From positions 1 through 26,839 of the forward strand of contig JAYZAL010000020.1 in assembly GCA_036339735.1 (NCBI GenBank): a DNA stretch of 26,839 nucleotides, given 5' to 3'. Positions 1,757 through 26,839 of this stretch are shown here, piece by piece. Within the stretch, counting starts at the first letter, position 1. Each line of letters begins with the position of its first letter. A model generated the notes under the pieces. The model made no database searches. It was not told the origin of the DNA and was given only the letters and a program-made list of their open reading frames with translations. Position numbers and translations under genes: made by a program. The DNA is from Candidatus Poribacteria bacterium. GTDB lineage: Bacteria > Poribacteria > WGA-4E > UBA9662.

Positions 1757-1954
1757 ATCGTTTTTATTTTTGGGTATTTTTTACAAAGAGGTTAACAATT
1801 TGAAGGAGCAACTAGAAATTCATGACCGAATCAATATCCTCGACCTAAGTGATGAGATACCATCATACACTATTAGATCCATTAATGTGGACAGAAAATC
1901 CAACTCACCTTATATTTACTTCTAGGAAACAGTCACTCACATCTTGTTGTTTCG

Positions 1955-4507: not shown

Positions 4508-4529
4508 TCTCAATTAATTTGTAATATGA

Positions 4530-8773: not shown

Positions 8774-8791
8774 TTTTTCTAAACCTTGATA

Positions 8792-9841: not shown

Positions 9842-9874
9842 TTTTCACCTACTGTTATTATATTTATTGTTGTC

Positions 9875-11575: not shown

Positions 11576-13792
11576 TTGCGCCGCAAATTACTACTTGGCA
11601 AAAAATACAGCTGGATACCTTTCATCCTGACTTTTGGTTTATTAATCTTACAACCGGCTTTCACCGCTGATGAAAGGATCTATCAAATTGTGGCCAACCG
11701 AACCCATAATCAGATCGAAATTGATGGTAATTTTAATGAATCTGACTGGCAGTCAGCACAAAAGGTTAGTAATTTCGTTCAAGTTGAGCCTAATCCGGGC
11801 CAAGAGTCTACTCAAAGAACTGAGGTCCGTATATTGTACGACACAAATAATATTTATTTTGGCTTTACTTGTTATGATACTGATGTTTCCAAGCTAGTAG
11901 CTAACGAGATGCGTCGAGACGCCCGTAATTTACACGAAAATGATAATGTTTTTCTGATCCTAGATACTTATGACGATCGACGTAATGGGGTTGCTTTTCG
12001 ATTTAATGCACTGAGTGCTATACAAGACATGGCTGTCACCAATAGTGGTGATAGTTTAAATAGAGACTGGGACGCAGTCGTTGATTGCCAAAGTCAGGTT
12101 GAAACTGACCGATGGTTATGTGAAATCTCTATTCCTTTTAGTCAGCTACGCTTCAGAAAGAGCGATGAGATGATATGGGGCATTAATTTGGCCCGCAAAT
12201 TAAGCCGAAATGACGAAGAATCGACTTGGGTGCCTGTTCCATCGTCCTATGGCGGTCGAGCTAAGTACCGGACTGAAAATCTAGGGCGTCTAGTTGGTAT
12301 AACTGGCATTAGTCCAAACCGGAATTTGGAGATACTGCCTTATTTTCTGCCGGGGTTAAGTCACATTAACGACCAACTTAAACCTAAACAAAAGGTTGGG
12401 CTAGACATTAAATACGGATTGACTACTAATCTTACCACAGACTTGACTATTAATACCGACTTTGCCCAAGTTGAGGCTGACGATGAACAGGTCAACCTAA
12501 CTCGATTTAGCCTGTTTTATCCAGAGAAACGCCCTTTTTTTCTAGAAGGTGCAGGTCTTTTTGATGTTGGAATCCCACGCACTAGTTATCGGCGCCCACC
12601 TCCTCTACTTCTTTTTTATAGCCGTCGGATTGGCATTGAAGATGGCGATTCGATTCCAATTTTAGCGGGCGGCAAAGTTACTGGAAAGATAGGTTCTTAT
12701 AGTGTTGGAATGCTGAACGCGCATACACAAGAATATGATAATAAAGAACAGCAAGAGTTGGATACAGATGTGGACCCTTTATATGTACCCTCAACTAATT
12801 TTTCAGTTGTCCGAGTAAATCGTGATATATCGAGTGGTTCCAATATAGGTATGATAGCAGTCAACAAGCAGGACGACGAATCGGCCAATCGTACCGGTGG
12901 CTTAGATTTCGCTTATCGACCTAATGAGAACCTACAGGTGCGAGGTCTGTGGGCAATGACAACCTCATCGTCTAAACTAGAGCAGTCTAGTCAGGCTTGG
13001 TACATGGGTTCGGAATGGCGAGGGGACCTATTTCAAGTTGATGGATCATTTTCTAGTATTGGACAAGATTTCAATCCGGAAGTCGGTTTTGTTAGGCAGA
13101 CCGGTATCCGCCGATTAACGGGAGAATTAGATTTTACACCTTGGGTACGCCGAGCAGGTATTCGCCGTATTTGGGCAGGGCCAGAGTTTGATTTAATTCT
13201 AAACCAAGAAAACCAATTGGTAACTCGAGATCTTTCGTTTGGTGGACGATTAGAATTTAGCACCGGAGGCTGGTCTGGATTTCAAATTCAAAATACGACT
13301 GAGGTGTTAGAAGAACCATTTGAGATTCGTTCAGATGTTATCATCCCAGTAGATGAATACAATTTCACCAGTTTTCGAGCGATGGTTGACACCCCCGAAA
13401 GTCGAATGATTTCAGGAGGTATAGGGGGGAGTATTGGCCAATTTTATAATGGTTCTCGGTATGGTATTAGGATGGGTGCAAATCTTAAAACCGACGGCCA
13501 TTTAATTTTAGAGTCCGATTATGAATTCAATCGGATCCACCTTCCTGCAGGAAATTTTAATGTTAGCTTAATCTCCTCACGCCTCGTCTATTCAGTAACA
13601 ACAACTCTGTTTACCAAGATTTTCTTTCAATGGAACAGCGACACTCATACTTACAACTACAATTGTCTACTGAACTGGATTTATCGGCCTGGTAGTGATC
13701 TATTTCTAGTATTGAATCATATTGTCCCACCCAAGGGTGAATCGACTTCTTCGGCAGTTTTAGCCAAATTCACCTATTGGTGGAGTCGGTGA
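11576..13792 (+). CDS. Outer-membrane protein with N-terminal CBM9-like domain and DUF5916-like region
   Basis: GGAGG RBS before the TTG start and a signal-peptide-like N-terminus. It has IEIDG..NESDW and EISIPFSQLRF (CBM9-like) and TINTDFAQVEAD..NLTRFSLFYPEKRPFFLEG (DUF5916-like) motifs. The amphipathic beta-strand C-terminus ends in AKFTYWWSR. Confidence 0.82.
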   Translation: MRRKLLLGKKYSWIPFILTFGLLILQPAFTADERIYQIVANRTHNQIEIDGNFNESDWQSAQKVSNFVQVEPNPGQESTQRTEVRILYDTNNIYFGFTCYDTDVSKLVANEMRRDARNLHENDNVFLILDTYDDRRNGVAFRFNALSAIQDMAVTNSGDSLNRDWDAVVDCQSQVETDRWLCEISIPFSQLRFRKSDEMIWGINLARKLSRNDEESTWVPVPSSYGGRAKYRTENLGRLVGITGISPNRNLEILPYFLPGLSHINDQLKPKQKVGLDIKYGLTTNLTTDLTINTDFAQVEADDEQVNLTRFSLFYPEKRPFFLEGAGLFDVGIPRTSYRRPPPLLLFYSRRIGIEDGDSIPILAGGKVTGKIGSYSVGMLNAHTQEYDNKEQQELDTDVDPLYVPSTNFSVVRVNRDISSGSNIGMIAVNKQDDESANRTGGLDFAYRPNENLQVRGLWAMTTSSSKLEQSSQAWYMGSEWRGDLFQVDGSFSSIGQDFNPEVGFVRQTGIRRLTGELDFTPWVRRAGIRRIWAGPEFDLILNQENQLVTRDLSFGGRLEFSTGGWSGFQIQNTTEVLEEPFEIRSDVIIPVDEYNFTSFRAMVDTPESRMISGGIGGSIGQFYNGSRYGIRMGANLKTDGHLILESDYEFNRIHLPAGNFNVSLISSRLVYSVTTTLFTKIFFQWNSDTHTYNYNCLLNWIYRPGSDLFLVLNHIVPPKGESTSSAVLAKFTYWWSR

Positions 13793-13807
13793 AATTCAGC
13801 CAGAATT

Positions 13808-14716
13808 TTGAAAACTAACACACCGATCAAAATTCCGTTTCGTATCGTAATGGCTGTTTTATTTTTAGCCTTTATGTGGGGCGGTAACGCTGCGGCTATC
13901 AAAATGAGCCTAACGGCATTCCAACCAATCGCAGTAGCTGGAATTCGATTCACCTTTGGTTTGATAGTCATTATCAGTTGGGCTTATCTGAACAAAATTC
14001 CCTTCTTACCTAGGCGTTGCCACTGGCCTCGACTTTTCTTGTTGGGTACAGTCTTTGTTATCCAAATTTTGTCTTTTAACTGGGGAACTAAGCTAACTGA
14101 CGCCGGCCGAGCTTCCCTCCTATTAAACACTCACCCACTATTGATTGCTTTGATTTCACACTTTTTCATAGCCGGCGACCGCTTAAATATTGTGAAGTCG
14201 ATTGGCCTAATAATCGCCTTTGTAGGTGTCTCGTTTGTATTCATCGGTCGTGTTTCTTCGACTCAGGTGAGAATTGGTGATGCTATGGTATTAACTAGTT
14301 CTTGTGGGTTGGCAGTGATTAATATCTTGCTCAGGCGATACATGGTACCTCAAGGTAATCCCCCAATCGAAGCAATGAACCAATTTCAGATCCTATTTGG
14401 TCAGATGGTGTTTGGTGTACCTATCTATTATGTTCTGAGTTGGTTTCTTGAAGGTCAGGCTGCTGCATACGGCTTCTGGTCATTGTCGGCTTGGATAGGT
14501 TTGATCTTTCAAGGGGTGATTATTGCCGGTTTCTGCTTCATTGCTTGGTCTTCGATCGTTAAGCGCTACCCACCAGGACGACTCTCTTCTTTATTTTTTA
14601 CCACACCAATCTGGGGAATTGCCTTTGGCCACCTACTTTTTCAGGAGGAGATCACTGGATCTTTGGTTGGTGGGGCCGGTTTAGTCGCTGTAGGCATCTA
14701 TTTAGTAAATCGATGA
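13808..14716 (+). CDS. DMT/EamA family transporter
   Basis: About ten hydrophobic segments, with WGGN..AIK, AGIRF, GRASLLLNTHP and FGHLLFQEEI motifs. The start may be the TTG at 13808 or a slightly later ATG. Confidence 0.9.
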   Translation: MKTNTPIKIPFRIVMAVLFLAFMWGGNAAAIKMSLTAFQPIAVAGIRFTFGLIVIISWAYLNKIPFLPRRCHWPRLFLLGTVFVIQILSFNWGTKLTDAGRASLLLNTHPLLIALISHFFIAGDRLNIVKSIGLIIAFVGVSFVFIGRVSSTQVRIGDAMVLTSSCGLAVINILLRRYMVPQGNPPIEAMNQFQILFGQMVFGVPIYYVLSWFLEGQAAAYGFWSLSAWIGLIFQGVIIAGFCFIAWSSIVKRYPPGRLSSLFFTTPIWGIAFGHLLFQEEITGSLVGGAGLVAVGIYLVNR

Positions 14717-14730
14717 GTAATCGGTGTGCT

Positions 14731-14777
14731 AAAAGAAAAACGCCGATTCAAACCGAAGGGAATTGGCTAAACCGGCG
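14731..14777 (-). terminator. Intrinsic terminator of the S55/beta-propeller operon
   Basis: Minus strand reads CGCCGGTTTAGCC...GGTTTGAATCGGCG-TTTTTCTTTT, a stem with G-U pairs followed by a U tract. It lies between convergent genes. Confidence 0.7.
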
Positions 14778-14819
14778 CAGAGGCTTATGCTGAAACAACT
14801 TTCGAATCAATAGATGAGT

Positions 14820-16946
14820 CTAAAAATTTGTTCCTTTAATGGCTTCGTTTCCAGCAGAATCAACGACACGAATCGCGATCGTGTGTGTACTGATAACTTT
14901 TTCGATCAGTTTAGTTGTTAGGACCAATTCTTCTCTTCGAGAGTCAAAAATCATGTCGGCTGGAAAAATCACCTTCCAATTTTCATCATTATCGATTTTG
15001 TATACTGCAGACTTAATTGGACTAATTTCATCCTCTACAACACAACTGATTTGGTAGGTACCGTCGTCTCTTCTTTCCCCTTTAATCTGACCTATAACTG
15101 GTTGTGTATTATCAATTTCGAAGGATTTACTAATCTTCTCGGTGTGCAAACTGGTCGTGGGTTGATTGCTCAATTGATCGCTGATAAATATTTTCAGGTG
15201 GTATATACCGTCTGGCATTGCGGTTGAGTCCCAAGTATAAATTGGCTTTTTAAGCTCATCTTTTAGTAATTGCCAGGTTTCGTCTGTTTCTATTTTGTAA
15301 TAGAGTGTGTATTCCAACCGATCTCCGTTAGGGTCACTTACTTCCCATTTTGCTGTGCGCCTTTTATCCATTTTAGCGTCGTTCCCATTTCGTTGGGGCG
15401 GACCATTCCGGTTTTCACGCTCTTTGGGAGCACCAATATGGATTTGGAAATCATCGATTCGAGGCTCAACGTTCAGTTGCACGGAACCAAATCGGACCTT
15501 CTTTAAGGTTGGTGTCCCCGAATCAGATTTGAGTTTGGCTTTCCACTGTAGAAACCGAGCATGCGGGCTGGTTATTTGCTCTCCTTCCGATGAAGTTATA
15601 GGTTCGGACCAATCGCTCCATGTGTTATCGGGTTGACTCGTATTACCAGAGCGAGTTGAAAACGACACACTATTTCCAATCGCATTCCATGACAATTTAC
15701 CCCATTGAGACGTTAAATCGGCATCGTATGCCTTCGACTCAAGCGTCCCTTCATCGACATAGTCATTTGAGAGCTGAAAAATCTTTCCTTGATTACCGGT
15801 TGCTACCCAGGTCTGTTTTGAATGCTTGGCATTCAAAAGGGCCAAAACCTGTTTTGCTTTGCAGTTAACAAGCTCGACTGATTCTCCATCTAGAGTTACT
15901 CGATATATTTTACCGTCATCTCCAGTCCCAACAATAAGATAATCTTGATGAGTTTCAATCGTCAGGATCAGCGGCTCAGGTGAGTTCCAGATACTTCGAA
16001 TAGTACCATTTGGTCGTACTTGATAGATTTGTGATTTGTTGATTTCTGCTGGCCTCCCGTCAGGAGAAGGTGGACCACTTGGTCTTTGGCCAGGCTTAGG
16101 TGGAACTGTGGTTACTGTTCCAGCAAAAACGCTACCATCAGCAGAACCGACCAAAGTCTTGACCTCTTTTTGGCCAGTTTGATGGATAACTTCAGCTTTT
16201 CCGTCCAAACTGATTTTGAAAATGATTGCTTTCCCATCACTACCAGCGTAAAGGTACCCCTGATGGAATAGTAAACTAACAATGTTAGTTTCATCGGAAT
16301 CGAACAACACTGTAGGGCTATTCTCCTCAGTATTTTCTGACTCTGTTTCAACACTGTTCGTCAAATCGGTGGTTGGTATTTTATATATTTTCCCTTCTGT
16401 TCCTGTTGCCGCATAAAGATTAGCGTCGTCGTCAAAAACCAAATCCCAAACATAATTTTCTTCAGCAGCAAGAATCGTGATAGGCGGTGTTTTGTTATTG
16501 TCTATTCTATAGACTAAACCACTGGGGGCTGTACCTGCATAGATACGGTCTTGTTCATCAATAGCTAGGCTGAGAATAGATACTTCCGGCGAATCATAAA
16601 AAAGCTTTGTTTCTCCAGTAGGCGAAATTTGATAAATTTTTCCACTGTTTCCGGTACCTGCATAGATGTTTCCAACTGAATCCTCAGCTAAGCACCAGAT
16701 ATAAACCTCGTTTGATTTGTCAAAAACAGTTTCTAGCTTTTGCTGTAAAATAACGTCCCCTTGACTGGATATTGCCACAGATTTAGGTGCGCCTTCACGA
16801 AAATCAACATGCTCTTTTTGTTCCCATATTTTTGTTTTAACTGCATCAACTGGTGTCGGAAAGAGGCTAAGAGCCATCAGAAACAAACCGAACCAAGTAA
16901 TTAGGCTATTTCTGTTCACGATTAACTTTGTTTTAAGGTAAGCCAA
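14820..16946 (-). CDS. Secreted beta-propeller protein with C-terminal Ig/FN3-like domains
   Basis: Signal peptide ending PVDA and ~42-aa blades (DSVGNIYAGTGNSGKIYQI, DEQDRIYAGTAPSGLVYRI, DDDANLYAATGTEGKIYKI). C-terminal DPNGDRLEY and WDSTAMPDGIYHLKI motifs. The TTG at 16946 follows a GAGGAG that overlaps the upstream stop; the ORF track start is 16967. Confidence 0.8.
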   Translation of the reverse strand: MAYLKTKLIVNRNSLITWFGLFLMALSLFPTPVDAVKTKIWEQKEHVDFREGAPKSVAISSQGDVILQQKLETVFDKSNEVYIWCLAEDSVGNIYAGTGNSGKIYQISPTGETKLFYDSPEVSILSLAIDEQDRIYAGTAPSGLVYRIDNNKTPPITILAAEENYVWDLVFDDDANLYAATGTEGKIYKIPTTDLTNSVETESENTEENSPTVLFDSDETNIVSLLFHQGYLYAGSDGKAIIFKISLDGKAEVIHQTGQKEVKTLVGSADGSVFAGTVTTVPPKPGQRPSGPPSPDGRPAEINKSQIYQVRPNGTIRSIWNSPEPLILTIETHQDYLIVGTGDDGKIYRVTLDGESVELVNCKAKQVLALLNAKHSKQTWVATGNQGKIFQLSNDYVDEGTLESKAYDADLTSQWGKLSWNAIGNSVSFSTRSGNTSQPDNTWSDWSEPITSSEGEQITSPHARFLQWKAKLKSDSGTPTLKKVRFGSVQLNVEPRIDDFQIHIGAPKERENRNGPPQRNGNDAKMDKRRTAKWEVSDPNGDRLEYTLYYKIETDETWQLLKDELKKPIYTWDSTAMPDGIYHLKIFISDQLSNQPTTSLHTEKISKSFEIDNTQPVIGQIKGERRDDGTYQISCVVEDEISPIKSAVYKIDNDENWKVIFPADMIFDSRREELVLTTKLIEKVISTHTIAIRVVDSAGNEAIKGTNF

Positions 16947-16956
16947 ACTTTTCTCC

Positions 16957-18882
16957 TCACTTGGCACGACGATTAACGCTAAGACGCAAGAATCGGCTGC
17001 CTGAAATCACATAATCGGTATTGTTTTTTTCAACGTGCAAGGTTCGTCCTTTTGTATATCCACCTTCACCTAATTGTGTCTGCGTATTCATAACAGATAG
17101 CATGGAAACTGGCAATTCAGGAAACTCTTCACCTTGCACTGTCATTCCAACTTTAGGAATGTAAATTTCCAAAATCAAGTCTAGATTACTTTCACCTCTT
17201 TGCAATAGCTTCAACATCTGGTTCAAATTTCTAGGTTGAAAATTCAGGGGGGCTCTTTGGCGCTGCCAACCATCATAAGACTGGCCACTAGAAACAAGTA
17301 GGATAACTTGCCCTTCAGGTGTTTTCTTCGGAATGGTAATCCGTGCTTTATGCACAATGGGATTTTCTAAATAGGGCCGCAAAACAACCGATACATCAAT
17401 AGTCTCACCCGGCCGATATTCACTTTTTTCGATTCTTAGTCCTTCGATAGTAGCAGTGTTTCGTTTATCCTTGATTTTGACATTAACCGTTATGTCTTCG
17501 ACTTTTAAGCGGCCGAATGGGTTTTGCATCAAGTTTTGCATTGCACTCAAAGAACGAAATGCCGCAAATCCTGGTGAGCCACTAGTGGAAAAAACATTTT
17601 TGTAGGTAAGTTCGTTCACGTCCAATTCTGGATGATCAGCAATTCGAATTCTGGTATCGATGGCGACAGTGTGTTCAGACCATGAAGATTCTAGCCCGTC
17701 TATTATATTCCGAGTACCAAACATCGCCATTGAAGCTGACATAAAACGATCTCGAGACACTTCAAAATACCGATCATGTGACTCGCCATCCATAGTCTGA
17801 ATCTTAGCTTTAATTGGAATATAGCTCGGTGATTCACCTATCGTACCTGCTATGGCCCCCATCCTATCTTGGACTAATGTACCAATAGGCTGGGTCGCAG
17901 ATGCCATCTTACTTGATCGATTGGTACTGGGCAAAATAAAGTGCACATATCCGCCTGATAGCGGAACATTGACATTTCCTTCTCCATACATATCGTGGCC
18001 AAAAGCAAGAAGTTGCTGTTTCTGTTGGTCAATATAAGTAATTGTGCCGTAACTGAAAGCGTTATAGTCTCCACGAGCAAACTCAACGCCAACCATTTGG
18101 CCTTGGGCTACAGGGGAATTTTCTACTGGTGCGCCGCCAGCTGAGGCCTGAATCGGCTCAATGTTATGGGGGGCAAATAACTGTCGCAACTGTGCCAAAT
18201 CTCCAACATTTCTCGTCGATACGGCCAAAGGCATGCTAACTAAGGAAGAACTTTTGCCTTGATGGATTTTGGGATCATTGAACTCGGGTATAGGCGCTGA
18301 TCCAAGATCACCAAACATCAGGTCTGTTGTGGATTGACCTGCAAATATGTGTGTCAGATCCAAAAATTTTGCGCCGGCATATTCAAGATTAGGTCGCATC
18401 CCACGTTGAGTAGCCTTGATCATCAGCTCGATAGAAGTAATACCGAATAGATTAGCGTGCTCCCTCTGATAATAAAATCCAAGCGACAGAGCACCAACTA
18501 ACTTTCCATCAATATAACAAGGGCTACCACTCATCCCACCAGCGACCCCCGTCTCCTTGAAATTATCACTCAACCCTTTGGCCCAGATAACATGCCAGCC
18601 AGGGACGTAATTGCGCTCGATACTTACAACAACGAAATCGAATGGCTCCACAACAGTTCCCTGAAAAACGGTGTGGCCTACGCCTTGAGCCCCAATCTTG
18701 ACTTGATCCAGTGGCATGAACTTACTGCTGTCCCAGCCAATTTGTGCTTGAGCGCAAAAGAGAAATAAGTCAGTAATCACTAAAAGCGTAGTTAGTAAGC
18801 TCAGGTAAAAGAATGTGGATATCTTCAAGTGTTTGCTTCTGGTTTTGGATAGCATCCTATCAACCACCCTATTGTATGTCAA
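16957..18882 (-). CDS. Exported SpoIVB-like peptidase S55 domain protein
   Basis: GVAGGMSGSPCYIDGKLVGALS (S55 catalytic Ser motif), GTITYID..LLAFGH (His motif) and an N-terminal hydrophobic segment. The exact start is uncertain. Confidence 0.85.
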   Translation of the reverse strand: MTYNRVVDRMLSKTRSKHLKISTFFYLSLLTTLLVITDLFLFCAQAQIGWDSSKFMPLDQVKIGAQGVGHTVFQGTVVEPFDFVVVSIERNYVPGWHVIWAKGLSDNFKETGVAGGMSGSPCYIDGKLVGALSLGFYYQREHANLFGITSIELMIKATQRGMRPNLEYAGAKFLDLTHIFAGQSTTDLMFGDLGSAPIPEFNDPKIHQGKSSSLVSMPLAVSTRNVGDLAQLRQLFAPHNIEPIQASAGGAPVENSPVAQGQMVGVEFARGDYNAFSYGTITYIDQQKQQLLAFGHDMYGEGNVNVPLSGGYVHFILPSTNRSSKMASATQPIGTLVQDRMGAIAGTIGESPSYIPIKAKIQTMDGESHDRYFEVSRDRFMSASMAMFGTRNIIDGLESSWSEHTVAIDTRIRIADHPELDVNELTYKNVFSTSGSPGFAAFRSLSAMQNLMQNPFGRLKVEDITVNVKIKDKRNTATIEGLRIEKSEYRPGETIDVSVVLRPYLENPIVHKARITIPKKTPEGQVILLVSSGQSYDGWQRQRAPLNFQPRNLNQMLKLLQRGESNLDLILEIYIPKVGMTVQGEEFPELPVSMLSVMNTQTQLGEGGYTKGRTLHVEKNNTDYVISGSRFLRLSVNRRAK

Positions 18883-18921
18883 TTTACTTTACTTGTATTC
18901 TTACGATGAATTTTATTTTGA

Positions 18922-19317
18922 TTACTCAGCTGATGACTTGCTCCCAGTAGATTTACCACTGTCCGATTTGCCACTGTCCGATTTACCACTGTCCGATTTA
19001 CCACTGTCTGATTTACCACTGTCTGATTTACCACTGTCTGATTTGCCACTGTCTGATTTGCCACTGTCCGATTTACCACTGTCCGATTTGCCATTATCTT
19101 TATCTTTCTTGGCGGCTTCACTATAAGAATCATCACGATAGTCAGTAATGTAAAAGCCTGACCCTTTGAATATTAACCCTGCGCCACCACTCATTAAGCG
19201 TTTAACTTGTCCTTCACAATTCTCGGTTGGGCAATCTTTCACTGGCTCAGCACTCATCGAGTGAAAAGCTTCAAATCTAGTATCGCAACCACTACAATGA
19301 TACTCGTAAGTTGGCAT
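18922..19317 (-). CDS. FmdB-family zinc-ribbon protein with low-complexity tail
   Basis: MPTYEYHCSGC...CPTENC...FKGSGFYITDY signature and a GGGAG RBS upstream. Confidence 0.9.
   Translation of the reverse strand: MPTYEYHCSGCDTRFEAFHSMSAEPVKDCPTENCEGQVKRLMSGGAGLIFKGSGFYITDYRDDSYSEAAKKDKDNGKSDSGKSDSGKSDSGKSDSGKSDSGKSDSGKSDSGKSDSGKSDSGKSTGSKSSAE
18950..19099. repeat. 15-bp tandem repeat GATTTRCCACTGTCY, nine copies plus one degenerate copy
   Basis: Read directly. It encodes DNGKS(DSGKS)9 in the FmdB protein. Confidence 0.97.
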
Positions 19318-19352
19318 GTTATGCTAGCTCCCTTAACTAGACTTAGTTGTTC

Positions 19353-19387
19353 AAAAACAAATAAAGCCTCGCAAAGATACGAGGCTT
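19353..19387 (-). terminator. Probable intrinsic terminator after rpoZ
   Basis: Minus strand reads AAGCCTCG-tatctttg-CGAGGCTT followed by TATTTGTTTTT. Confidence 0.6.
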
Positions 19388-19436
19388 ATAACGGTTCATA
19401 ACAAAGTATTTACCTATCTCTTTTTACAAACTATTT

Positions 19437-19796
19437 CTATAGACCTTCTTCTACTTCGTCGTCAGTTGCACCTGTATCTTCAAGGTAGATTTGGTCGAAT
19501 AAATCATCTGACTTATCAGTTGATTTCGTTTCATCAACTGACACATCATCATCATCGTTTTCGCTAAACAAAGAAAACGGATCTGACTGATCATTACTGG
19601 GTTGTTCTAAGCGTCGATATTCAATCTTATGTTCCACAACTTCTTCCAGCGCCTCAGTGACACACTTTTTGGAATTCGGATTCAAGAACTGAAGGTTGCG
19701 ATCATTAAGTACGCGAGCCCTTTGCGCTATCATGTTTACTGCTAGATACTTGTTACCAACCCGATCCGACAAATCTTCTAAATAAACTATGGCCAT
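19437..19796 (-). CDS. rpoZ: RNA polymerase omega subunit with acidic C-terminal extension
   Basis: LEDLSDRVGNKYLAVNMIAQRARVL...KCVTEALEEV matches omega. GGAGGA lies 4 nt before the ATG at 19796, so the ORF track start at 19862 is probably too far upstream. Confidence 0.82.
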   Translation of the reverse strand: MAIVYLEDLSDRVGNKYLAVNMIAQRARVLNDRNLQFLNPNSKKCVTEALEEVVEHKIEYRRLEQPSNDQSDPFSLFSENDDDDVSVDETKSTDKSDDLFDQIYLEDTGATDDEVEEGL

Positions 19797-19893
19797 TTCA
19801 TCCTCCAAAACCAAATAACGGGCAATCATAGCACAAAAAATTACAAATTGCAATATAACCAATCAATGATTCTAGCCTAATCAGCCATCTAAA

Positions 19894-21558
19894 TTAATAT
19901 TCTGATTGGTCTTTTTGTAATTCTACCAACCTCTGCTGAAAGACGGGGTTGTCAGGTGCAGATTCTATGGCTGACTGACAAGCTTTGAGTGCCAACTTTA
20001 TTTTTCCTGCCTGGTGATAAACTTGGGCAAGGATATCGAAGTATTCGGGAGCAGGTTGGAGTTGACAGGCCTGTTCAGCTAGTAAGCACGCTTGGTCATT
20101 TTCGGTATTCTTTTTAAGATAAACTTGGGCTAGACCAATCATAGCATAGTGGGCCTTGGAGTCAGAGGCCAGAGCTTTCTGGAAAGCCAAGATAGCTTTT
20201 TGATGATCTTTTTTTTGTAGATAAATTGTCCCTAAGCCTGCCTGAGCTAACGCCAAAGTTGGGTTCGTCTGACCAGTGATAGTTTGATTGGCCTCAGACT
20301 GTTGAAGTACTGCCCTATAATGCTTCTCGGCCAAATCCGATTTCTGTTGAAAGTGGAAAATCTTCGCTAAGCCAAGGTGAGGAGCGGCTGTTTGAGGAGA
20401 ATATTTCAAAGCAGTTTGGTAAGATTTTGTAGCTGCTATCAGCTGGCCACTCTGAAAATAGATACGACCCAGAGCGTAGTGGGCCTCAGAGTAATGGTTG
20501 CCAACAGCAACTGCTGATTGATAAGCAGAAAGAGCCAAGTCCATTTTATTATATTTTTCGTAGATTTTCCCCAATCGATAGTGGACAGCTGGGTTATTTG
20601 GTTCAATAGTAATGGCTCGCTCTCGGTCTTCAATTTCAGTTGCAATGGCTTTGAGCTGTCGGTAAACATCCATTGTTTGTCTTCCTTCACTCGTTCGCCT
20701 TAGTCTAAAGTAGCCCTGAGCCAGATTATAATGTGCACCAACATGATCTGCTTTCTGCTTAATAACAGTTTCAAAAGCACTGACAGCCGCGGGAAACTGC
20801 TTCTGTTTCATTAAAATCAAGCCTAGATGGTATCGGGCTTCAAAAAAACTTGGATCTACCTGAACTGCTTTCTCTAATAGTGGAAATGCTTGCTGAATAT
20901 TGCCTTTCCCTTGATAGATAGCGCCTAAATTACCCAATGCCATGGGGAGACTAGAATCAATTTCTAAGGCAGATTTATAGCTCTTTATCGCCTTATCCAG
21001 CTGGTTTATGGCCTCATAACAAGCGGCCAAATTTGTTATTACTGAAGGTGCAGAAGCCGAAATCTTCAGGGCTTTTTGGTAGGAAGTTATGGCTTTCGAA
21101 TAATCAGATCTTTTGTGATAAATGGTCGCGAGACCAATATAAGCACGATTTTGGCTGGTGGAACTAATGCCAACTGGTTGTTCTACTAAATGATTGTAGG
21201 TGGAAATTGCTAGATTGGTACGGTTGGTAGACTTATAAAGATGTGCCAAATTGAGCTGAGCCTGCTCCAAATAGCCATCTAATTCAACGGCTTTTAGTAA
21301 ATGCAGTTCGGCCAAGCCTAGCTCACCTGCTTGCAGATAGATCGTACCAATAGCTCCATGAGATTTGGCAAAATCATCATCTGCTTCGATGGATTGACGA
21401 AATAGATGGGTAGCAGATTCGGTGCGCCCACTTCGTAATTCTATTAGCCCTCGTTGGTACAATTGTTCAGGAAAATCGGTCTTCACTGAGTTAGCCGATT
21501 GCACCAGCACCAACCAGAAAATGAAACTAACAAGTAATCTGTGGTTTTCTATCCGCAT
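19894..21558 (-). CDS. Exported TPR protein
   Basis: N-terminal hydrophobic signal and TPR units (ALGNLGAIY, ARYHLGLIL, AHYALGRIY) to the end. Confidence 0.9.
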   Translation of the reverse strand: MRIENHRLLVSFIFWLVLVQSANSVKTDFPEQLYQRGLIELRSGRTESATHLFRQSIEADDDFAKSHGAIGTIYLQAGELGLAELHLLKAVELDGYLEQAQLNLAHLYKSTNRTNLAISTYNHLVEQPVGISSTSQNRAYIGLATIYHKRSDYSKAITSYQKALKISASAPSVITNLAACYEAINQLDKAIKSYKSALEIDSSLPMALGNLGAIYQGKGNIQQAFPLLEKAVQVDPSFFEARYHLGLILMKQKQFPAAVSAFETVIKQKADHVGAHYNLAQGYFRLRRTSEGRQTMDVYRQLKAIATEIEDRERAITIEPNNPAVHYRLGKIYEKYNKMDLALSAYQSAVAVGNHYSEAHYALGRIYFQSGQLIAATKSYQTALKYSPQTAAPHLGLAKIFHFQQKSDLAEKHYRAVLQQSEANQTITGQTNPTLALAQAGLGTIYLQKKDHQKAILAFQKALASDSKAHYAMIGLAQVYLKKNTENDQACLLAEQACQLQPAPEYFDILAQVYHQAGKIKLALKACQSAIESAPDNPVFQQRLVELQKDQSEY

Positions 21559-21564
21559 CTAATT

Positions 21565-22425
21565 CTATTTGTTGGTTATATCCATGGCACAGCGGAATCC
21601 ACGCAACATCGACCCAGGGTTTCCACCCAACCGACCAGCACAGCGAGTATAATCTTTATTGACTGACCAGTCCCCACCCTTGAGAACATGTCCATCACCA
21701 TCAACTGGCCCTTTAGGATTGGTTGATGGTGCCGTCAAGAAATAATCTACATCATACCAATCTGAAACCCATTCCCATAAATTCCCCGCCATGTCGAGTG
21801 CACCATACGGGCTCGCTCCTTGTGGAAATTGACCGACTGGTGCTGTTTGTTTGTAACCGTCTTTGTCGCCGGTACCATCATTACCACTTAACCGGGTATC
21901 ATCCCACTGACTTCCCCAAGGCCAAATTCGACCATCAGTACCACGAGCAGCTTTTTCCCACTCGGCTTCAGTTGGTAATCGCTTACCCACCCACTCCGCG
22001 TAGGCCATAGCGTCTTCCCATACCATTACCATAGCCGGGTAATCAGGGTTGTCGTGCGGTGGGATATGAACATAATCTTGAGGCTGATAACCGGTTTCAG
22101 CTAAAAATTTTTGATATTGACGATTAGTAACTTCATGTATATCGATCAAAAAAGCGTCAACGTAAACCGTCCTCTGTGGCATTTCATTGACATAACGTTC
22201 CGCTTTTCTTAACGGAAAAAGATCCTTGTAAACTTCCAAATCAGCTTGGCTGGTTCCCATTAGGAAATTACCAGCTGGCACATATACCATCTCCACACTA
22301 TCTCTAGGCTGAGCCTTAGTATCTCCGACACCCCAATGGGTTAGTTCACAAGCTGTCATACACCAGCTAACTACAGCCAAAATTAACATTGGAACGAGAT
22401 GGGTAATAGGTTTGGATGAATTCAT
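21565..22425 (-). CDS. Formylglycine-generating-enzyme-fold (SUMF1/EgtB/PvdO family) protein, possible lipoprotein
   Basis: VPAGNFLMG, EVTNRQY, RLPTEAEWEKAARG, YGALDMAGNLWEW and GFRCA motifs. Lipobox-like MTA-C follows a hydrophobic stretch. Confidence 0.88.
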   Translation of the reverse strand: MNSSKPITHLVPMLILAVVSWCMTACELTHWGVGDTKAQPRDSVEMVYVPAGNFLMGTSQADLEVYKDLFPLRKAERYVNEMPQRTVYVDAFLIDIHEVTNRQYQKFLAETGYQPQDYVHIPPHDNPDYPAMVMVWEDAMAYAEWVGKRLPTEAEWEKAARGTDGRIWPWGSQWDDTRLSGNDGTGDKDGYKQTAPVGQFPQGASPYGALDMAGNLWEWVSDWYDVDYFLTAPSTNPKGPVDGDGHVLKGGDWSVNKDYTRCAGRLGGNPGSMLRGFRCAMDITNK

Positions 22426-22502
22426 AGTCGATCAGGATTTGTATATCAGATAAAAATGGAGAGAGGTCAGACTGTTTTGAATAGTTAGAACTCCGATGAC
22501 CG

Positions 22503-22531
22503 ATTATACCACAACGAGGTAATTAGAGTAA
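22503..22531 (-). promoter_or_regulatory. Sigma70-type promoter with extended -10 for the FGE-fold/TPR genes
   Basis: Minus strand TGTGGTATAAT (TGnTATAAT) lies about 78 nt upstream of the 22425 start. A weak -35 (TTACTC) sits at 17 bp spacing. Confidence 0.55.
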
Positions 22532-22872
22532 TTGTGCGTTAGTGTAATCTTTTCAGAAAAACATACCCCATCAAAAAAATCTTGGTGCCAAAATTTAATC
22601 AGCTCACCTAGGTCAGGCAACAAGTATTAGATCCAATTACTTACCATCATCCCATCGCCATAAGGCTTGATTGACAAATACTTTCTTTTTTTACACTGAA
22701 AAAGGATCTTGTAAGCTTTTAGACTACGTTTTAACAACACTGGTATAAACTTCTGACCAAGAAGAAAATCAATTGATAGTCAAGTGGAAAGTAAGAGTTT
22801 GGTTATCCACTTTTCTATTGTTTTCTATTGGTAAAGTACATTAACTAGCTAGCGAAGCTTTAATAAAAATAC

Positions 22873-22911
22873 AAAAAAATAGGAGCTCGACCAATTCAAT
22901 AGCCGAGCTCC
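22873..22911 (-). terminator. Intrinsic terminator of the minus-strand paralog pair
   Basis: Minus strand reads GGAGCTCGGCTA-ttgaat-TGGTCGAGCTCC-TATTTTTTT. The G-U pairs form only on the minus strand. Confidence 0.8.
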
Positions 22912-22986
22912 CACCTTGTCTTAACTAATACTGACCGTAGGTTGTCAGCGGTCAGAATAGCATATTCATATTGTTACATACCGTAA

Positions 22987-23799
22987 TTATCGAGTTTTAA
23001 GACTGCCCCAAGTGACAGATAGTTTAGATGCCGGTTCGACAGGAGTATCAGTCTTATATAACCAGGTAATTATTTCAGTACCAATTTCCGCTAATGGTTC
23101 TGTAGGTCCATTAATCTGGACACAAGGAATCAAGCGTCCTTTGTCTCCGTCGCGAACAATAACGGGATCAGCACGCGTACCATCTTTGGCATCAGCTAAA
23201 GATGCTTCGACCTTCCAGGTTGAGCCTTCAATCTCATCAACGTGGAAAGGACGATCAGATTCAATTTTTCCGACTTTAGCTAATGCCGGAGAAATCTCTT
23301 TTCCTTTGGCGGTGACTTCACAAGGTGTGTTGTCATCCCACATAGTGATCTCCTTAATATCCATAATACTTCGAAGACCTGCTTCTTTATTCCGGCCAGC
23401 CAAGCCCCAGAACATATAATCAGCGTGGTTGATAAAAGCATTACCATCTGTTGTCTCAACGAATCCCTCAGCCGGTGTTCCATCTGACAGATCGGCGTTT
23501 CCGGTGTCAAAAATTTCTGGCGGAATGTCGCCGAAAAGAACAACAACATCAATGCCACCATCCTTAGTGGTTTTCTTCATCCAATCAGCTATCTGTTTCC
23601 CATCACCATCATTTTTGAACCAAGTATTCTTGATTCCAGCATCATCGAGCAATTTGGTATACTTGTCGGCTTGTTCATCTGCTACATCTTTGCCAATCCA
23701 CTGGGTAAGACCGGTGTAAATGGCAACTTCGCCGGCGGAGTAGGCCAAACTGACGGTGAGCACCATTAGTGCTAACGAAAGAGTAAAAAAGCGTTTCAA
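22987..23799 (-). CDS. Secreted protein of unknown function, paralog A2, with C-terminal VEPASKLSVTWGSLK tail
   Basis: Signal peptide (MKRFFTLSLALMVLTVSLAYS) and visible homology to the three neighbours. The TTG start has an AGGAGG RBS inside the last codons of the upstream gene. Confidence 0.88.
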   Translation of the reverse strand: MKRFFTLSLALMVLTVSLAYSAGEVAIYTGLTQWIGKDVADEQADKYTKLLDDAGIKNTWFKNDGDGKQIADWMKKTTKDGGIDVVVLFGDIPPEIFDTGNADLSDGTPAEGFVETTDGNAFINHADYMFWGLAGRNKEAGLRSIMDIKEITMWDDNTPCEVTAKGKEISPALAKVGKIESDRPFHVDEIEGSTWKVEASLADAKDGTRADPVIVRDGDKGRLIPCVQINGPTEPLAEIGTEIITWLYKTDTPVEPASKLSVTWGSLKTR

Positions 23800-23800
23800 G

Positions 23801-24634
23801 TTATTCTCCTCCTAACTTAATATCACCCCATGATAGGGATAGTTTTTGGTTAGCATCGACTGCTAGAGCACCAACAGCCTCTACATAATAGTTCAACAGA
23901 ATATCGGCGAGAATGTCTCCCACCGGCTCAGGACACCCTGATGTTTGGCAGACTTGAATTAACCTACCTTTATAATTCTTTTCGGTCAATATGCAAGGAT
24001 CGGCTCGGTCAGTCTTGGCATTACCTGATTTAGAAGCAAAAGCCACCTCGAGTTCCCACTTTTTATCTAGTTGGTCAACATGGAATGGGCGATCTGACTC
24101 GATAGCTTTCATCTTAGCTAAAGTCGGGGAATACTTCTTACCCTCAGCGGTTAATTTCATCGGGGTATTATCATCCCACTGAACAATACCCGGGATGTCC
24201 ATCATTGTCTGAATCCCACATTCTTTGTTCCGACCACCTTGGCCCCAAAAGAAATAGTCAGCACTGTTAGTGAAGGTATTACCAGCTTCTAAATATTTCT
24301 CCGCGACAGAGCCATCTTTTTTAGCACAACCACCAGGATAAATAGTCGTTGGTATATCTCCATACATTACGAAGACATGGTTACCGTTTTTCTTGGTATG
24401 AGCTTTCATCCATTCAGCTGCTGGTTTGGCATTCAAATTTTCAACTTTCCCTATACCAGGCTTACCTTTCAGTCGCTTCATTAGGATGTCAGCCTGTTTT
24501 TGGGCTGCCCCCTGAGCAATCCATTGTGTTGTTTCAGTATAAACACAAACATCAACGGCTCTGGCAAAGCTGGAAATTGGCAAAAATGACAACACTAACA
24601 AGCAACAGAAAGAGAAAATAGCTATTCTTTTCAT
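23801..24634 (-). CDS. Secreted protein of unknown function, paralog A1, with C-terminal VDANQKLSLSWGDIK tail
   Basis: Signal peptide. Shares GRNKE, WDDNTP and IESDRPFHVD with A2. Confidence 0.88.
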   Translation of the reverse strand: MKRIAIFSFCCLLVLSFLPISSFARAVDVCVYTETTQWIAQGAAQKQADILMKRLKGKPGIGKVENLNAKPAAEWMKAHTKKNGNHVFVMYGDIPTTIYPGGCAKKDGSVAEKYLEAGNTFTNSADYFFWGQGGRNKECGIQTMMDIPGIVQWDDNTPMKLTAEGKKYSPTLAKMKAIESDRPFHVDQLDKKWELEVAFASKSGNAKTDRADPCILTEKNYKGRLIQVCQTSGCPEPVGDILADILLNYYVEAVGALAVDANQKLSLSWGDIKLGGE

Positions 24635-24680
24635 CTGTTCCGATTTAACCTCTCTTAAGAACTAGTATTCAACTTTCATC

Positions 24681-24709
24681 ATTCTCTTACACTTAATCTT
24701 TATTGTCAA
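24681..24709 (-). promoter_or_regulatory. Candidate sigma70 promoter for the A1-A2 pair
   Basis: Minus strand TTGACA (24709-24704), 17 bp spacer, then GAGAAT. Confidence 0.45.
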
Positions 24710-24744
24710 GTTTTTGTCACTTTTTTAAGTTTTTATTGTTTTCC

Positions 24745-24775
24745 TTTTGTCTTTTTTTTAAAATAAAGGACAAAA
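24745..24775. promoter_or_regulatory. AT-rich imperfect palindrome in the divergent intergenic region
   Basis: TTTTGTC-N17-GACAAAA, with 13 of 15 arm positions complementary. Confidence 0.4.
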
Positions 24776-24798
24776 CAGATCATTTCCCCAATAGAAAC

Positions 24799-24828
24799 TT
24801 GCCCTCATTACGATGTATCAGATATATT
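24799..24828 (+). promoter_or_regulatory. Candidate sigma70 promoter for the B1-B2 pair
   Basis: TTGCCC, 18 bp spacer, then TATATT. Confidence 0.3.
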
Positions 24829-24903
24829 TTGGCGTTATTCTTTCATTGAAGATAGACTTCGATCATACGAGATTATCAAAAATAACCAAAATCTAAACTG
24901 AAG

Positions 24904-24918
24904 AATTGTAGTACAATT
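24904..24918. promoter_or_regulatory. Perfect palindrome, candidate GntR/FadR-type operator
   Basis: AATTGTA-G-TACAATT, just upstream of the RBS and GTG of 24936. Confidence 0.55.
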
Positions 24919-24935
24919 ATGGGGGGAATCCTGAA

Positions 24936-25751
24936 GTGCAAAAAATATTTGCGTTTATTCTTTCATTTTCGATTTTTGTTCTAGCTTTCGACGCTAAAAG
25001 TGAGAACAAACAAATGGGCGAAATAGCCATATTTAACGAATCGGTCGGTTGGACCGATGTCGGAGCCGCTAAAGAAGCTACCGAAAAAATTCTAAAAACA
25101 AAATTGGGGAAAGCTAAGGTCTACGGTGACAAAGCAATTGGCGATTTTGCCAAAAAAAGAACAGAAGATGGTGCGCTAGACATTATCATAACCTTTGGTT
25201 ATTTTCCGGTCAGCCTTTACAAGCCGGGTAATGCTGAAAAAGAAGATTCAATAGCTGAAAAATTCTTGGAAGGCGGGGACATGTTCATGAATGCGGCTGA
25301 TTATATTTTCTACGTTACTCAGGGCGGTGGTGCTAATGGTGAAAATGGTCTCAAGACTATTACTGATAGTAACTTCGACTGCTGGACGGATGGAAACAGT
25401 ATAAAGCCTACTCCGGAAGGCAAGAAGTTTACGCCTAGTCTGAAGCCAACGGCTTCTCAAAGATCTATGAAGAAAGACCAAATCGACGACGATAAGAACT
25501 GGGAAGTGGAAGTCGTTTTCGGTGATGACAAAGGTGGTAAAGGAAGTTTATTGGATCCGGTAATTATCCGTCAGAAGGAACATGGTGGACGAGTTTGTAT
25601 CGTAACACAGACTCCTGGGGCAGTAGCCTACAGAGGTGATGTCATGTTCGAAATTCTAGACAATTACATTAGAAAAGAAGTTGCCGCTGCCTTTTCCGTC
25701 GATCCTCAGTCTAAGCTAGCGACGACTTGGTCGGAAATAAAGAGTTTCTAA
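24936..25751 (+). CDS. Secreted protein of unknown function, paralog B1, with C-terminal VDPQSKLATTWSEIK tail
   Basis: Signal peptide. Shares MNAADYIFYVT.GGGANG..GLKTIT.SNFDCW with B2. Confidence 0.88.
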   Translation: MQKIFAFILSFSIFVLAFDAKSENKQMGEIAIFNESVGWTDVGAAKEATEKILKTKLGKAKVYGDKAIGDFAKKRTEDGALDIIITFGYFPVSLYKPGNAEKEDSIAEKFLEGGDMFMNAADYIFYVTQGGGANGENGLKTITDSNFDCWTDGNSIKPTPEGKKFTPSLKPTASQRSMKKDQIDDDKNWEVEVVFGDDKGGKGSLLDPVIIRQKEHGGRVCIVTQTPGAVAYRGDVMFEILDNYIRKEVAAAFSVDPQSKLATTWSEIKSF

Positions 25752-25843
25752 TTCACCTTCGATTTGCTTGCTTATAGCTTCCGCCAAGTCGAAATTTTAT
25801 CAACCTCCAACTAGTAGACAAAAAATTCCTATAGGAGAAATTA

Positions 25844-26656
25844 ATGTTAAAAAAGACTTTTATTCTTTTTGCCTTAACGGCGTTAACCTTGACTTCAGCC
25901 TTTGCTGGCATCGATGAAATCGCCATATTTAATGCAAACGTTGGCTGGACAACAGTAGACGCTGCCGCTGAAGCCACAGAACAGATTGTAGCAAATGTCA
26001 AAACTGCTGCAAGCGTTAACGTTGTAGATATGGACGCACTAGCTGACTGGATTGTCAAAACCCACGAAGATGGAACAACTGATGCAATTATCCTGTTTGG
26101 TTACCTTCCGGAAACAGTATATGAGCCAGGTAACAGTCAGGAAGACGATTCCTTAATCGAAAAATTCATCAATGGTGGAAATATTGTGATGAATGCGGCT
26201 GATTACATCTTCTACGTGACCAAGGGTGGTGGCGCTAATGGTGATAAAGGATTAAAAACAATTACCAATAGCAACTTTGACTGCTGGGGCGACGAAAGTC
26301 CGTTTGCACCAACCGCTGATGGTAAAAAGTATGTACCTAGCTTGCCAGCCGAATACATTTCCCAAAGACCTATGAAAAAATCGCAAATTGATGCTGATGA
26401 TAATTGGGAAGTCGAAATTAGCTTTGGTTCAAATGGTGATGACAACCACGATCCGGTCGTAGTAAAGAGTACGACACATGGTGGCCGATTTGTAATCGTC
26501 CGACAAACTCCTGCAGCTGCTCCTGATCGTGGAGCCGTATTCAGTGAAATCATCGACAACTATTTCAGCACTGCAGTTACTGGTTCAACAGCAGTAGATC
26601 CAGCTGAAAAAGTTTCAACCACTTGGGGTAACCTGAAAGCCCAAGCTATCAAGTAA
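25844..26656 (+). CDS. Secreted protein of unknown function, paralog B2, with C-terminal VDPAEKVSTTWGNLK tail
   Basis: AGGAG RBS, signal peptide ending AFA, and homology to the three neighbours. Confidence 0.9.
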   Translation: MLKKTFILFALTALTLTSAFAGIDEIAIFNANVGWTTVDAAAEATEQIVANVKTAASVNVVDMDALADWIVKTHEDGTTDAIILFGYLPETVYEPGNSQEDDSLIEKFINGGNIVMNAADYIFYVTKGGGANGDKGLKTITNSNFDCWGDESPFAPTADGKKYVPSLPAEYISQRPMKKSQIDADDNWEVEISFGSNGDDNHDPVVVKSTTHGGRFVIVRQTPAAAPDRGAVFSEIIDNYFSTAVTGSTAVDPAEKVSTTWGNLKAQAIK

Positions 26657-26679
26657 GTTTTTTACTACTTACTAGAAAT

Positions 26680-26714
26680 AAAAAAGGCATACTCTGAAGA
26701 GTATGCCTTTTTTT
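26680..26714 (+). terminator. Intrinsic, probably bidirectional, terminator
   Basis: AAAAAA-GGCATACTC-tgaa-GAGTATGCC-TTTTTTT. Confidence 0.92.
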
Positions 26715-26839
26715 GTCTCAAACCAATCGTCTGATGAAAGAAAATTGATCACCCTTGGTTTAAGCAAACATTCTGTTGGTCCCGACAATTAATCTTACTT
26801 CTGGGTTCGTTTGGGATTGGCCTGCATTAAATGGTACTC

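Follow-up and report, generated by a model that had tools for sequence, protein, structure and literature searches.

Four paralogous, putatively exported proteins with a predicted ThuA-like fold and a portable C-terminal TTWG tag in a marine Poribacterium

The levan-binding domain of Bt1761 (DUF4960, PF16324) from Bacteroides thetaiotaomicron is among the closest described structural counterparts of the proteins considered here, which are encoded by a cassette at positions 22,873 to 26,714 of contig JAYZAL010000020.1 (Candidatus Poribacteria bacterium; GTDB lineage Bacteria; Poribacteria; WGA-4E; UBA9662; assembly GCA_036339735.1). The whole stretch of 26,839 nt, referred to below as the window, is the entire contig (C20) of a free-living marine Poribacterium with an assembly of 4.32 Mb in 107 contigs and 40.6% G+C. 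Sections of PMC10076258 describe levan binding by a DUF4960 clone and a flavodoxin-like fold. In sections of a preprint (bioRxiv 10.1101/2022.08.15.503959), levan binding by Bt1761 is lost in a W297A/W359A mutant, the neighbours of its levan-binding domain include ThuA-like 1T0B and homoserine succinyltransferase 7CBE, and ThuA-like proteins are thought to act in disaccharide oxidation. The Bt1761 domain and the cassette models have structural neighbours in common, and both would be extracytoplasmic and non-catalytic, as is presumed for the cassette. Bt1761 is a lipoprotein with two immunoglobulin-like domains in a SusCD utilisome, whereas each cassette protein consists of one domain and a C-terminal tag.

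The cassette holds exactly four open reading frames (ORFs) of 270-277 amino acids (aa) in the order <-A2 <-A1 / B1-> B2->, as given in a preliminary description made from the sequence alone. They are as follows.

22987-23799, minus strand: A2, 270 aa from a TTG start, with a putative signal peptide, a predicted class I glutamine amidotransferase (GATase)-like domain of ~225 aa and a TTWG tail
22990-23049, minus strand: C-terminal tag of A2, ending ...VEPASKLSVTWGSLKTR; residues 254-270 are modelled with low confidence (predicted local distance difference test, pLDDT, <50)
23801-24634, minus strand: A1, 277 aa, directly upstream of A2 and 1 nt apart from it
24936-25751, plus strand: B1, 271 aa from a GTG start, with a TTWG-type tail (KLATTWSEIKSF)
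25844-26656, plus strand: B2, 270 aa, with a TTWG tail (KVSTTWGNLKAQAIK)

The four proteins align collinearly with 39 invariant columns, which include W34, G90/P93, N124-A126-D127-Y128-F130, N137/G141, W154/D156, T163-G166-K167-P171-L173, S181/R183, W195/E198, D211-P212 and G221-R222; every motif reported earlier as shared falls in these columns. Identity to A2 is 45% for A1 and 32% for both B1 and B2, and B1 and B2 are 51% identical to each other. Genome-wide, a profile of the four proteins scores its own members at 413-452 bits and finds just two more relatives (332 and 122 bits), so the paralogy is far beyond chance. All four N-termini combine a basic n-region with a hydrophobic run of 9 residues or more, a simple heuristic for signal peptides rather than a dedicated predictor, which agrees with the signal peptides noted before and suggests export via Sec.

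AlphaFold2 models of B2 (pLDDT 88.5; predicted template-modelling score, pTM, 0.84) and A2 (pLDDT 88.1; pTM 0.85) depict the body as a three-layer alpha/beta/alpha domain of the class I GATase-like (ThuA-like) fold. The Foldseek matches listed at E ≤ 1e-3 comprise homoserine acyltransferases, glutamine amidotransferases, gamma-glutamyl hydrolase and ThuA-like proteins, together with multidomain glycan enzymes (GH42 and others) and levan utilisome chain 8aa2_G (E 4.9e-4). The last is probably Bt1761, judging from its chain length of 435 residues. The VIA-align figures for the neighbours are as follows.

GH42 domain B (5xb7): 12.2, 180
ThuA-like 1t0b: 11.5, 195
beta-1,2-glucosyltransferase domain (7vkw): 10.9, 183
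ThuA-like 4jqs: 10.7, 199
8aa2_G: 10.2, 183
HisH (1kxj): 10.0, 173

By three-dimensional structure the models thus agree with ThuA-like proteins, with the fold of the Bt1761 levan-binding domain and with the class I GATase-like superfamily fold. Given these neighbours, the earlier proposal of a class I GATase-like/ThuA fold, made before any model was available, was correct. In GH42 (5xb7), GH164 (6t5o), the beta-1,2-glucosyltransferase (7vkw) and alpha-L-fucosidase (6tvk) the corresponding domain is an internal part of a large enzyme, whereas the cassette domain stands alone or in tandem.

No named family covers the domain, as the preliminary description had supposed. Searches of Pfam and NCBIfam gave nothing beyond noise at E ≤ 10, including the GH42 middle domain (Glyco_hydro_42M, PF08532); the domain has no precomputed Pfam family in any of 120 near-length homologues, and a 37-sequence profile run against all PDB chains matched no solved structure at E ≤ 10. 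Homologues are named 'hypothetical protein' in the databases, or after a fused domain alone (e.g., discoidin, PA14). A protein language model places the proteins nearest to the named clusters MJECL34 (PF27344; 0.95), DUF4960 (PF16324; 0.94-0.95), DUF2194, the beta-galactosidase trimerisation domain, LBP_M and ThuA. The similarity to MJECL34 (a Pfam 38 model) is 0.89 for B2 and 0.95 for A2 and serves as a candidate lead only; PF27344 is precomputed on 2 of 55 longer homologues and on none of the 120 near-length ones, and no paper was found under either of its names.

The same four-protein profile, searched against 1.84 billion representative proteins, found 312 at E ≤ 1e-3, of which 140 reach E ≤ 1e-30, with a conserved unit at profile positions ~22-250. 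Among the Poribacteria-phylum genomes searched, 126 of 151 (19 of 22 genera) hold between one and nine matches each; in Planctomycetota the family occurs in 3 of 101 genomes sampled around the one that contains locus L070. To judge from these searches the family is uncatalogued and centred on Poribacteria, its novelty in the literature being judged without a family name to search by. In 49 of 51 related loci fetched, the gene immediately upstream of the A2 orthologue is A1-like. These loci come from one-genome-per-species contigs, of which 49 are titled Poribacteria, one 'uncultured bacterium' and one is a metagenome-assembled genome (MAG) of Planctomycetota.

The last ~20 residues of the cassette proteins follow the pattern v-[DE]-P-x-x-K-L-x-T-T-W-G-x-[IL]-K, with 0-8 further residues. 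The preliminary description did not set these residues apart. They are not a motif of the family but a separate, portable tag of exported proteins. With K-L-x-T-T-W-[GSA]-x-[ILV]-K at most 8 residues from the stop codon as the test motif, the tag is present in all four proteins, A1 having the variant SLSW (its tail reads KLSLSWGDIK; most A1 orthologues have KLPxLWGDIK). Across the genome 46 ORFs end in the tag, 40 of which pass the signal-peptide heuristic, and a looser form of the motif is C-terminal in 47 of its 55 occurrences, against ~3.3 expected by position. The bodies to which it is attached, of which 45 had sufficient length for comparison, make up 17 sequence groups and cover at least 7 Pfam families, with names such as LamG_3 (representatives of a group of 21), 3-keto-disaccharide hydrolase-like, CBM9, PD40 propeller, HmuY, discoidin and cohesin. 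The tag lies outside the folded domain: besides the poorly modelled end of A2, the last two 10-residue blocks of B2 (residues 251-270) average a pLDDT of 56 and 61.

The type IX secretion C-terminal domain, dockerins and PEP-CTERM/LPXTG signals resemble the TTWG tail in occupying the extreme C-terminus of exported proteins with many unrelated folds. The tail differs from them in being only ~20 residues long and not a folded domain in either model, and in having no hydrophobic or basic stretch after the motif, where no more than 8 residues precede the stop. Homologues lack the tail or have a dockerin-type segment instead of it, and in those of other phyla a dockerin or FlgD_ig/Por_Secre_tail (type IX) domain is found in its position. 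No NCBIfam sorting-signal model matches the tail, searches for the TTWG tag found nothing in print, and the literature on C-terminal sorting in Poribacteria, screened by title and the start of the abstract, contained nothing about it. A role in sorting the protein to the cell envelope, or in anchoring it there, is probable for the tag.

The arrangement of the domain within its homologues bears on what it does. Near-full copies, counted in 298 fetched homologues, number one in 251 and two to eight in the other 47. The domain occupies the N-terminus of 45 of 67 multidomain representatives, ahead of lectin-like modules and then a sorting domain. Partners in the 51 of these 67 that were scanned are LamG_3 (17), FlgD_ig (15), dockerin (10), discoidin (8), cohesin (7), LRR (6), Por_Secre_tail (5), PA14 (3), a putative peptidase (3) and GH99 (1). 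In the Planctomycetota MAG (L070), two adjacent giant genes (1191-5471 and 5812-9972; 1427 and 1387 aa) each encode four tandem copies of the domain, and elsewhere in that genome a third protein of 692 aa has two copies.

Conservation was examined over 106 non-redundant copies of the domain (<60% identity). In B2 numbering, E106 and G112 are present in 100%, P89 and W188 in 99% and S103 in 96%; W35, W69, Y93, N117, D120, N132, D142, T157, R175, D203 and E235 are also conserved, and the conserved residues are kept in every tandem copy. The columns richest in Cys and His reach 33% and 49%, respectively, and since no column exceeds these values, the amidotransferase triad is absent. Class I glutamine amidotransferases (e.g., HisH, 1kxj) have the same fold, whereas this family is without a conserved Cys/His/Glu triad and is putatively exported. 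No GATase Pfam model matched at E ≤ 10, and a catalytic class I glutamine amidotransferase was rejected as an identity for the proteins. According to the secondary-structure string of the B2 model, many of the conserved residues follow strands 1, 3 and 4. In the class I GATase-like fold, the loops after those strands usually form the functional edge.

The favoured reading, to which we give an even chance, is that the proteins are non-catalytic glycan-binding modules displayed on the cell surface via the TTWG tag. Glycan binding is made probable by the resemblance of the predicted shape to a known sugar-chain-binding domain. Binding in Bt1761 is Trp-dependent, and the cassette family keeps conserved Trp/Tyr residues (W35, W69, Y93 and W188), a likeness that is suggestive only. 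A binding module is also favoured because the tandem copies retain their residues and the fusion partners are mainly lectin-like or anchoring modules; tandem repeats are typical of binding modules. The earlier suggestion of ligand-binding or sugar-active proteins is in keeping with these fusion partners and with the levan-binding precedent of the fold. As proposed, an exported single-domain protein with a ThuA-like body that is without the Cys-His-Glu triad would bind glycan, its disordered tail of ~20 residues would sort or anchor it in the envelope, and A1 and A2, a conserved gene pair, may act jointly with the product of a lipoprotein gene that accompanies them across the phylum and resembles formylglycine-generating enzymes (FGE), described below.

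Several observations weigh against this proposal. Although the A2 and B2 models are like ThuA-like proteins (1T0B, 4JQS) in shape, the ThuA profile misses all four: PF06283 gives no match at E ≤ 10 and finds nine other places in the genome, none in the cassette, and hhalign against those nine matches returned a probability of 0.3% (E 0.2), i.e., no profile link. For DUF4960 there is likewise no match at E ≤ 10 in the four proteins or the genome, none at E ≤ 1 in eight distant paralogues from relatives, and hhalign against 12 Poribacterial ORFs matching PF16324 gave 0.9% (E 0.064). The DUF4960 likeness is a possible similarity in the working of the domain, not family membership. The conserved residues may cluster at one site, a placement read from the secondary-structure string of the model by itself. 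Catalytic domains to which binding modules are appended likewise typically lie N-terminally, ahead of such lectin-like modules and sorting domains, and the invariant Glu and several near-invariant Asp/Asn would suit an enzyme too. The RNA evidence given below consists of assembled contigs from runs chosen for holding the stretch, in which DNA carry-over is possible.

Under the main rival reading, which we regard as somewhat unlikely, the domain would instead be the catalytic part of a new family of carbohydrate-active or other hydrolytic enzymes, with LamG, discoidin and PA14 as substrate-binding appendages. An N-terminal position followed by lectin-like, dockerin or type IX sorting domains is the usual layout of secreted glycan enzymes. 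Besides the invariant Glu106, the residues Asp120, Asp142, Asp203, Asn117, Asn132, Ser103 and Arg175 occur in 86-96% of copies, and the secondary-structure string puts those from Ser103 to Asn132 in the helix and loops that surround strand 4. Active sites in enzymes of this fold generally lie in that region. No conserved Cys, His or Ser-His pair is found, however, at the nucleophile position of the known hydrolases of the fold, and retention of residues in two to eight tandem copies (47 of 298 homologues) is unusual for a catalytic domain and common for a binding one. GH99 and peptidase partners are indeed present in a few fusions, as expected if the domain is the accessory part. The nearest structures are divided: ThuA-like proteins, thought in the preprint sections cited above to be active in disaccharide oxidation, are among them, but so are two non-catalytic domains, domain B of GH42 and the binding domain of Bt1761.

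A second exported family came to light beside the DUF4960 comparison. In the ESM Atlas, PF16324 is annotated on 55% of one Poribacterial cluster, a row that most likely refers to a different tagged family of ~290 aa. Members of that family (loci L081-L092) score up to 43.7 bits with PF16324, end in a TTWG tail and occur in 89 of 121 Poribacteria-phylum genomes searched; the source genome itself gave no match to it.

The neighbourhood of A1 and A2 is conserved in a further respect. Downstream of A2 lie the following features.

21565-22425, minus strand: FGE-sulfatase-like gene, 286 aa, with a lipobox-like N-terminus (PF03781, 191.6 bits)
22426-22986, minus strand: spacer between A2 and the FGE-like gene, 561 bp and non-coding, with the A2 terminator and a conserved extended -10-like element (TGGTATAAT)

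Among the 49 loci with an A1-A2 pair, 47 have an FGE-family gene after A2 on the same strand; of the other two, L068 lacks the gene and the L069 locus is truncated. The A1, A2 and FGE-like frames are mostly less than 100 bp apart, and in sponge-associated genomes they often overlap or lie within 100 bp. In the source genome and its two closest relatives (L021 and L022) the spacer measures ~520-560 bp and the terminator and TGGTATAAT are kept; the spacer contains no ORF of at least 40 aa, and the spacers examined gave no Rfam match at E ≤ 1. NCBIfam assigns the FGE-like protein no equivalog and yields only sub-cutoff matches (EgtB, SenA, PvdO and GldK). True formylglycine-generating enzymes have paired cysteines, which the C-terminal region of this protein presumably lacks. 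There are 37 FGE-family matches in the genome, but these are not generally enriched near tagged genes (5 of 46 have one within 3 kb; the expectation is 2.4 +/- 1.8, and 5 or more came up in 243 of 2000 shuffles), and the FGE link is therefore specific to A1-A2. One of the 37 matches is inside a 3854-aa open frame (contig C27, ~7728-8441).

Conservation of the trio in 47 of 49 loci, with frames so often overlapping or closely spaced in sponge-associated genomes, would fit A1 and A2 being substrates or partners of the FGE-like protein in an envelope machine, e.g., a sorting or maturation unit. Further FGE-like genes adjoin further family paralogues in two loci (L055 and L056), and the FGE-like protein, with its lipobox-like N-terminus, has a weak likeness to GldK/PorK, the ring lipoprotein of type IX secretion (72 bits; cut-off 350). 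In the window, however, 561 bp with a terminator and a separate promoter-like site divide the FGE-like gene from A2, FGE-family matches show no general association with the tag, and neighbourhood alone is weak evidence for joint function. Such a machine is very unlikely in our estimation.

In six sponge-associated loci (L028, L029, L034, L036, L041 and L046; ~3930-4920 in each) a third, very divergent paralogue is encoded on the strand of A1, ~200-400 bp upstream of it. It scores 63-67 bits with the family profile and is 27-28% identical to B2 where BLAST matched; no Pfam family was found in five that were scanned.

The cassette had been described as a self-contained set of four, and in this respect the description does not stand. 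The closest relative, L021 (A2 protein identity 91%), has the same divergent layout with a fifth paralogue after B2. It aligns with the window over 26795-19556 at 88.9% identity, and, ~231 bp beyond the aligned part, with the end of contig C25 at 87.4% identity, which places a fifth paralogue of the source genome just past the window end and on the strand of B1 and B2.

Contig C25, ~7740-8756 (contig end), outside the window, same strand as B1 and B2: fifth paralogue, ~337 aa, 332 bits to the profile

This protein has a lipoprotein-like (lipobox-like) LGC N-terminus, a charged linker that is probably coiled, and a degenerate variant tail (KLAIIWAETKKF). A sixth, more distant copy is on contig C6 (122 bits with the four-protein profile). 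Among the related loci compared, B1/B2-type paralogues stand beside the A1-A2 pair in divergent layout solely in the window and L021, while the unit found phylum-wide is A1-A2 with the downstream FGE-like gene. The cassette is better seen as two parts, a conserved A1-A2(-FGE-like) core and an addition of B1, B2 and the fifth gene.

The regulatory features recognised around the four genes are as follows.

24635-24935, no strand assigned: intergenic region of 301 bp between the divergent genes A1 and B1; each strand has one promoter-like site
24709-24681, minus strand: promoter-like site on the A side, TTGACA-17-GAGAAT, by consensus match only
24799-24828, plus strand: promoter-like site on the B side, by consensus match only
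22917-22876, minus strand: terminator-like hairpin after A2, an 18-pair stem with 7 G-C pairs and a T-run, conserved in L021 and L022
26680-26713, no strand assigned: terminator-like hairpin after B2, 15 pairs, between an A-run and a T-run; 126 nt remain to the end of the contig

The two hairpins correspond to the terminators noted before at either outer end. The GTG start of B1 is preceded by a G-run Shine-Dalgarno-like site (~24922-24928).

Six marine metatranscriptome runs hold 57-69% of the sampled words of the stretch, and contigs from four of these runs, from four studies, were placed on positions 12000-26839. In all four runs the four genes are covered by RNA-library contigs and the A2/A1 junction is bridged by one contig; B1 and B2 are bridged in one run. 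Occurrence in contigs from several ocean metatranscriptomes indicates that the genes are probably made in nature. The contigs show presence and, being assembled records with possible DNA carry-over, are compatible with strong divergent transcription rather than a measure of expression. A contig of one run (X12) stops at 24673, which is 8 nt beyond the -10-like hexamer in the downstream direction and a weak hint of a transcript end, and contig 3' ends at 22908, 22922 and 22983 hint weakly at the nearby terminator. B1 contigs of two studies (X11 and X18) start at 24934, 2 nt before the GTG, though the Shine-Dalgarno-like site lies upstream of that point, and this start probably reflects a break in the assembly rather than the beginning of a transcript. 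None of the contigs listed crosses 24674-24933 or links A2 to the FGE-like gene, an absence of cover that proves nothing. Elsewhere in the window, a small zinc-ribbon gene adjoining rpoZ (18922-19317, minus strand) has the second-highest contig word depth in X12 (168). An ORF of 517 aa (9875-11428, minus strand) with no Pfam or NCBIfam family lies between GFO/IDH/MocA oxidoreductase and CBM9/DUF5916 genes.

Summed word depth is 15-224 over the cassette, against 0-9 over the FGE-like and TPR genes, in all four runs. Poor as this figure is as a measure of expression, it would suit abundant structural or coat components of the envelope, surface-layer-like or scaffold, that use the fold for oligomerisation as in GH42 trimers, as would a multi-copy family in 126 of 151 phylum genomes. 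The phylum-wide pairing of A1 with A2 would suit a hetero-oligomer; prediction of a complex of their mature domains from orthologue alignments of 32 and 31 rows returned an interface score (ipSAE) of 0.00 in both runs, which tells neither way. Surface-layer proteins, however, are rarely so small or so conserved in polar and aromatic loop residues, and the lectin-like and dockerin fusions point to glycan capture and not to a lattice. A coat role of this kind is, on balance, quite unlikely.

In Planctomycetota and other phyla the domain is fused with LamG, discoidin and cohesin into giant surface proteins with a terminal dockerin or type IX sorting domain, in contrast to Poribacteria, whose tagged proteins carry each of these module types singly. 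One unlikely but broader picture is that Poribacteria build a modular glycan-capture coat from separately encoded exported modules with an A1-A2-FGE-like core, in which TTWG would be a short, non-covalent docking handle, a minimal dockerin-like element read by an envelope receptor.

What is new here is the family; its fold was already known. To judge by the genomes searched, an uncatalogued domain is nearly universal in Poribacteria, a major uncultivated phylum of sponge symbionts that also has free-living marine members. The family is a further, well-defined cargo of the TTWG tag for which good models and a conserved partner gene are available, and it offers a convenient experimental handle on the tag. 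If its members bind glycans, it would be the second sequence-distinct family, after DUF4960, to use the GATase-like/ThuA fold as a carbohydrate-binding module, and would add a new entry to the Poribacterial toolkit for the capture of marine or sponge polysaccharides.

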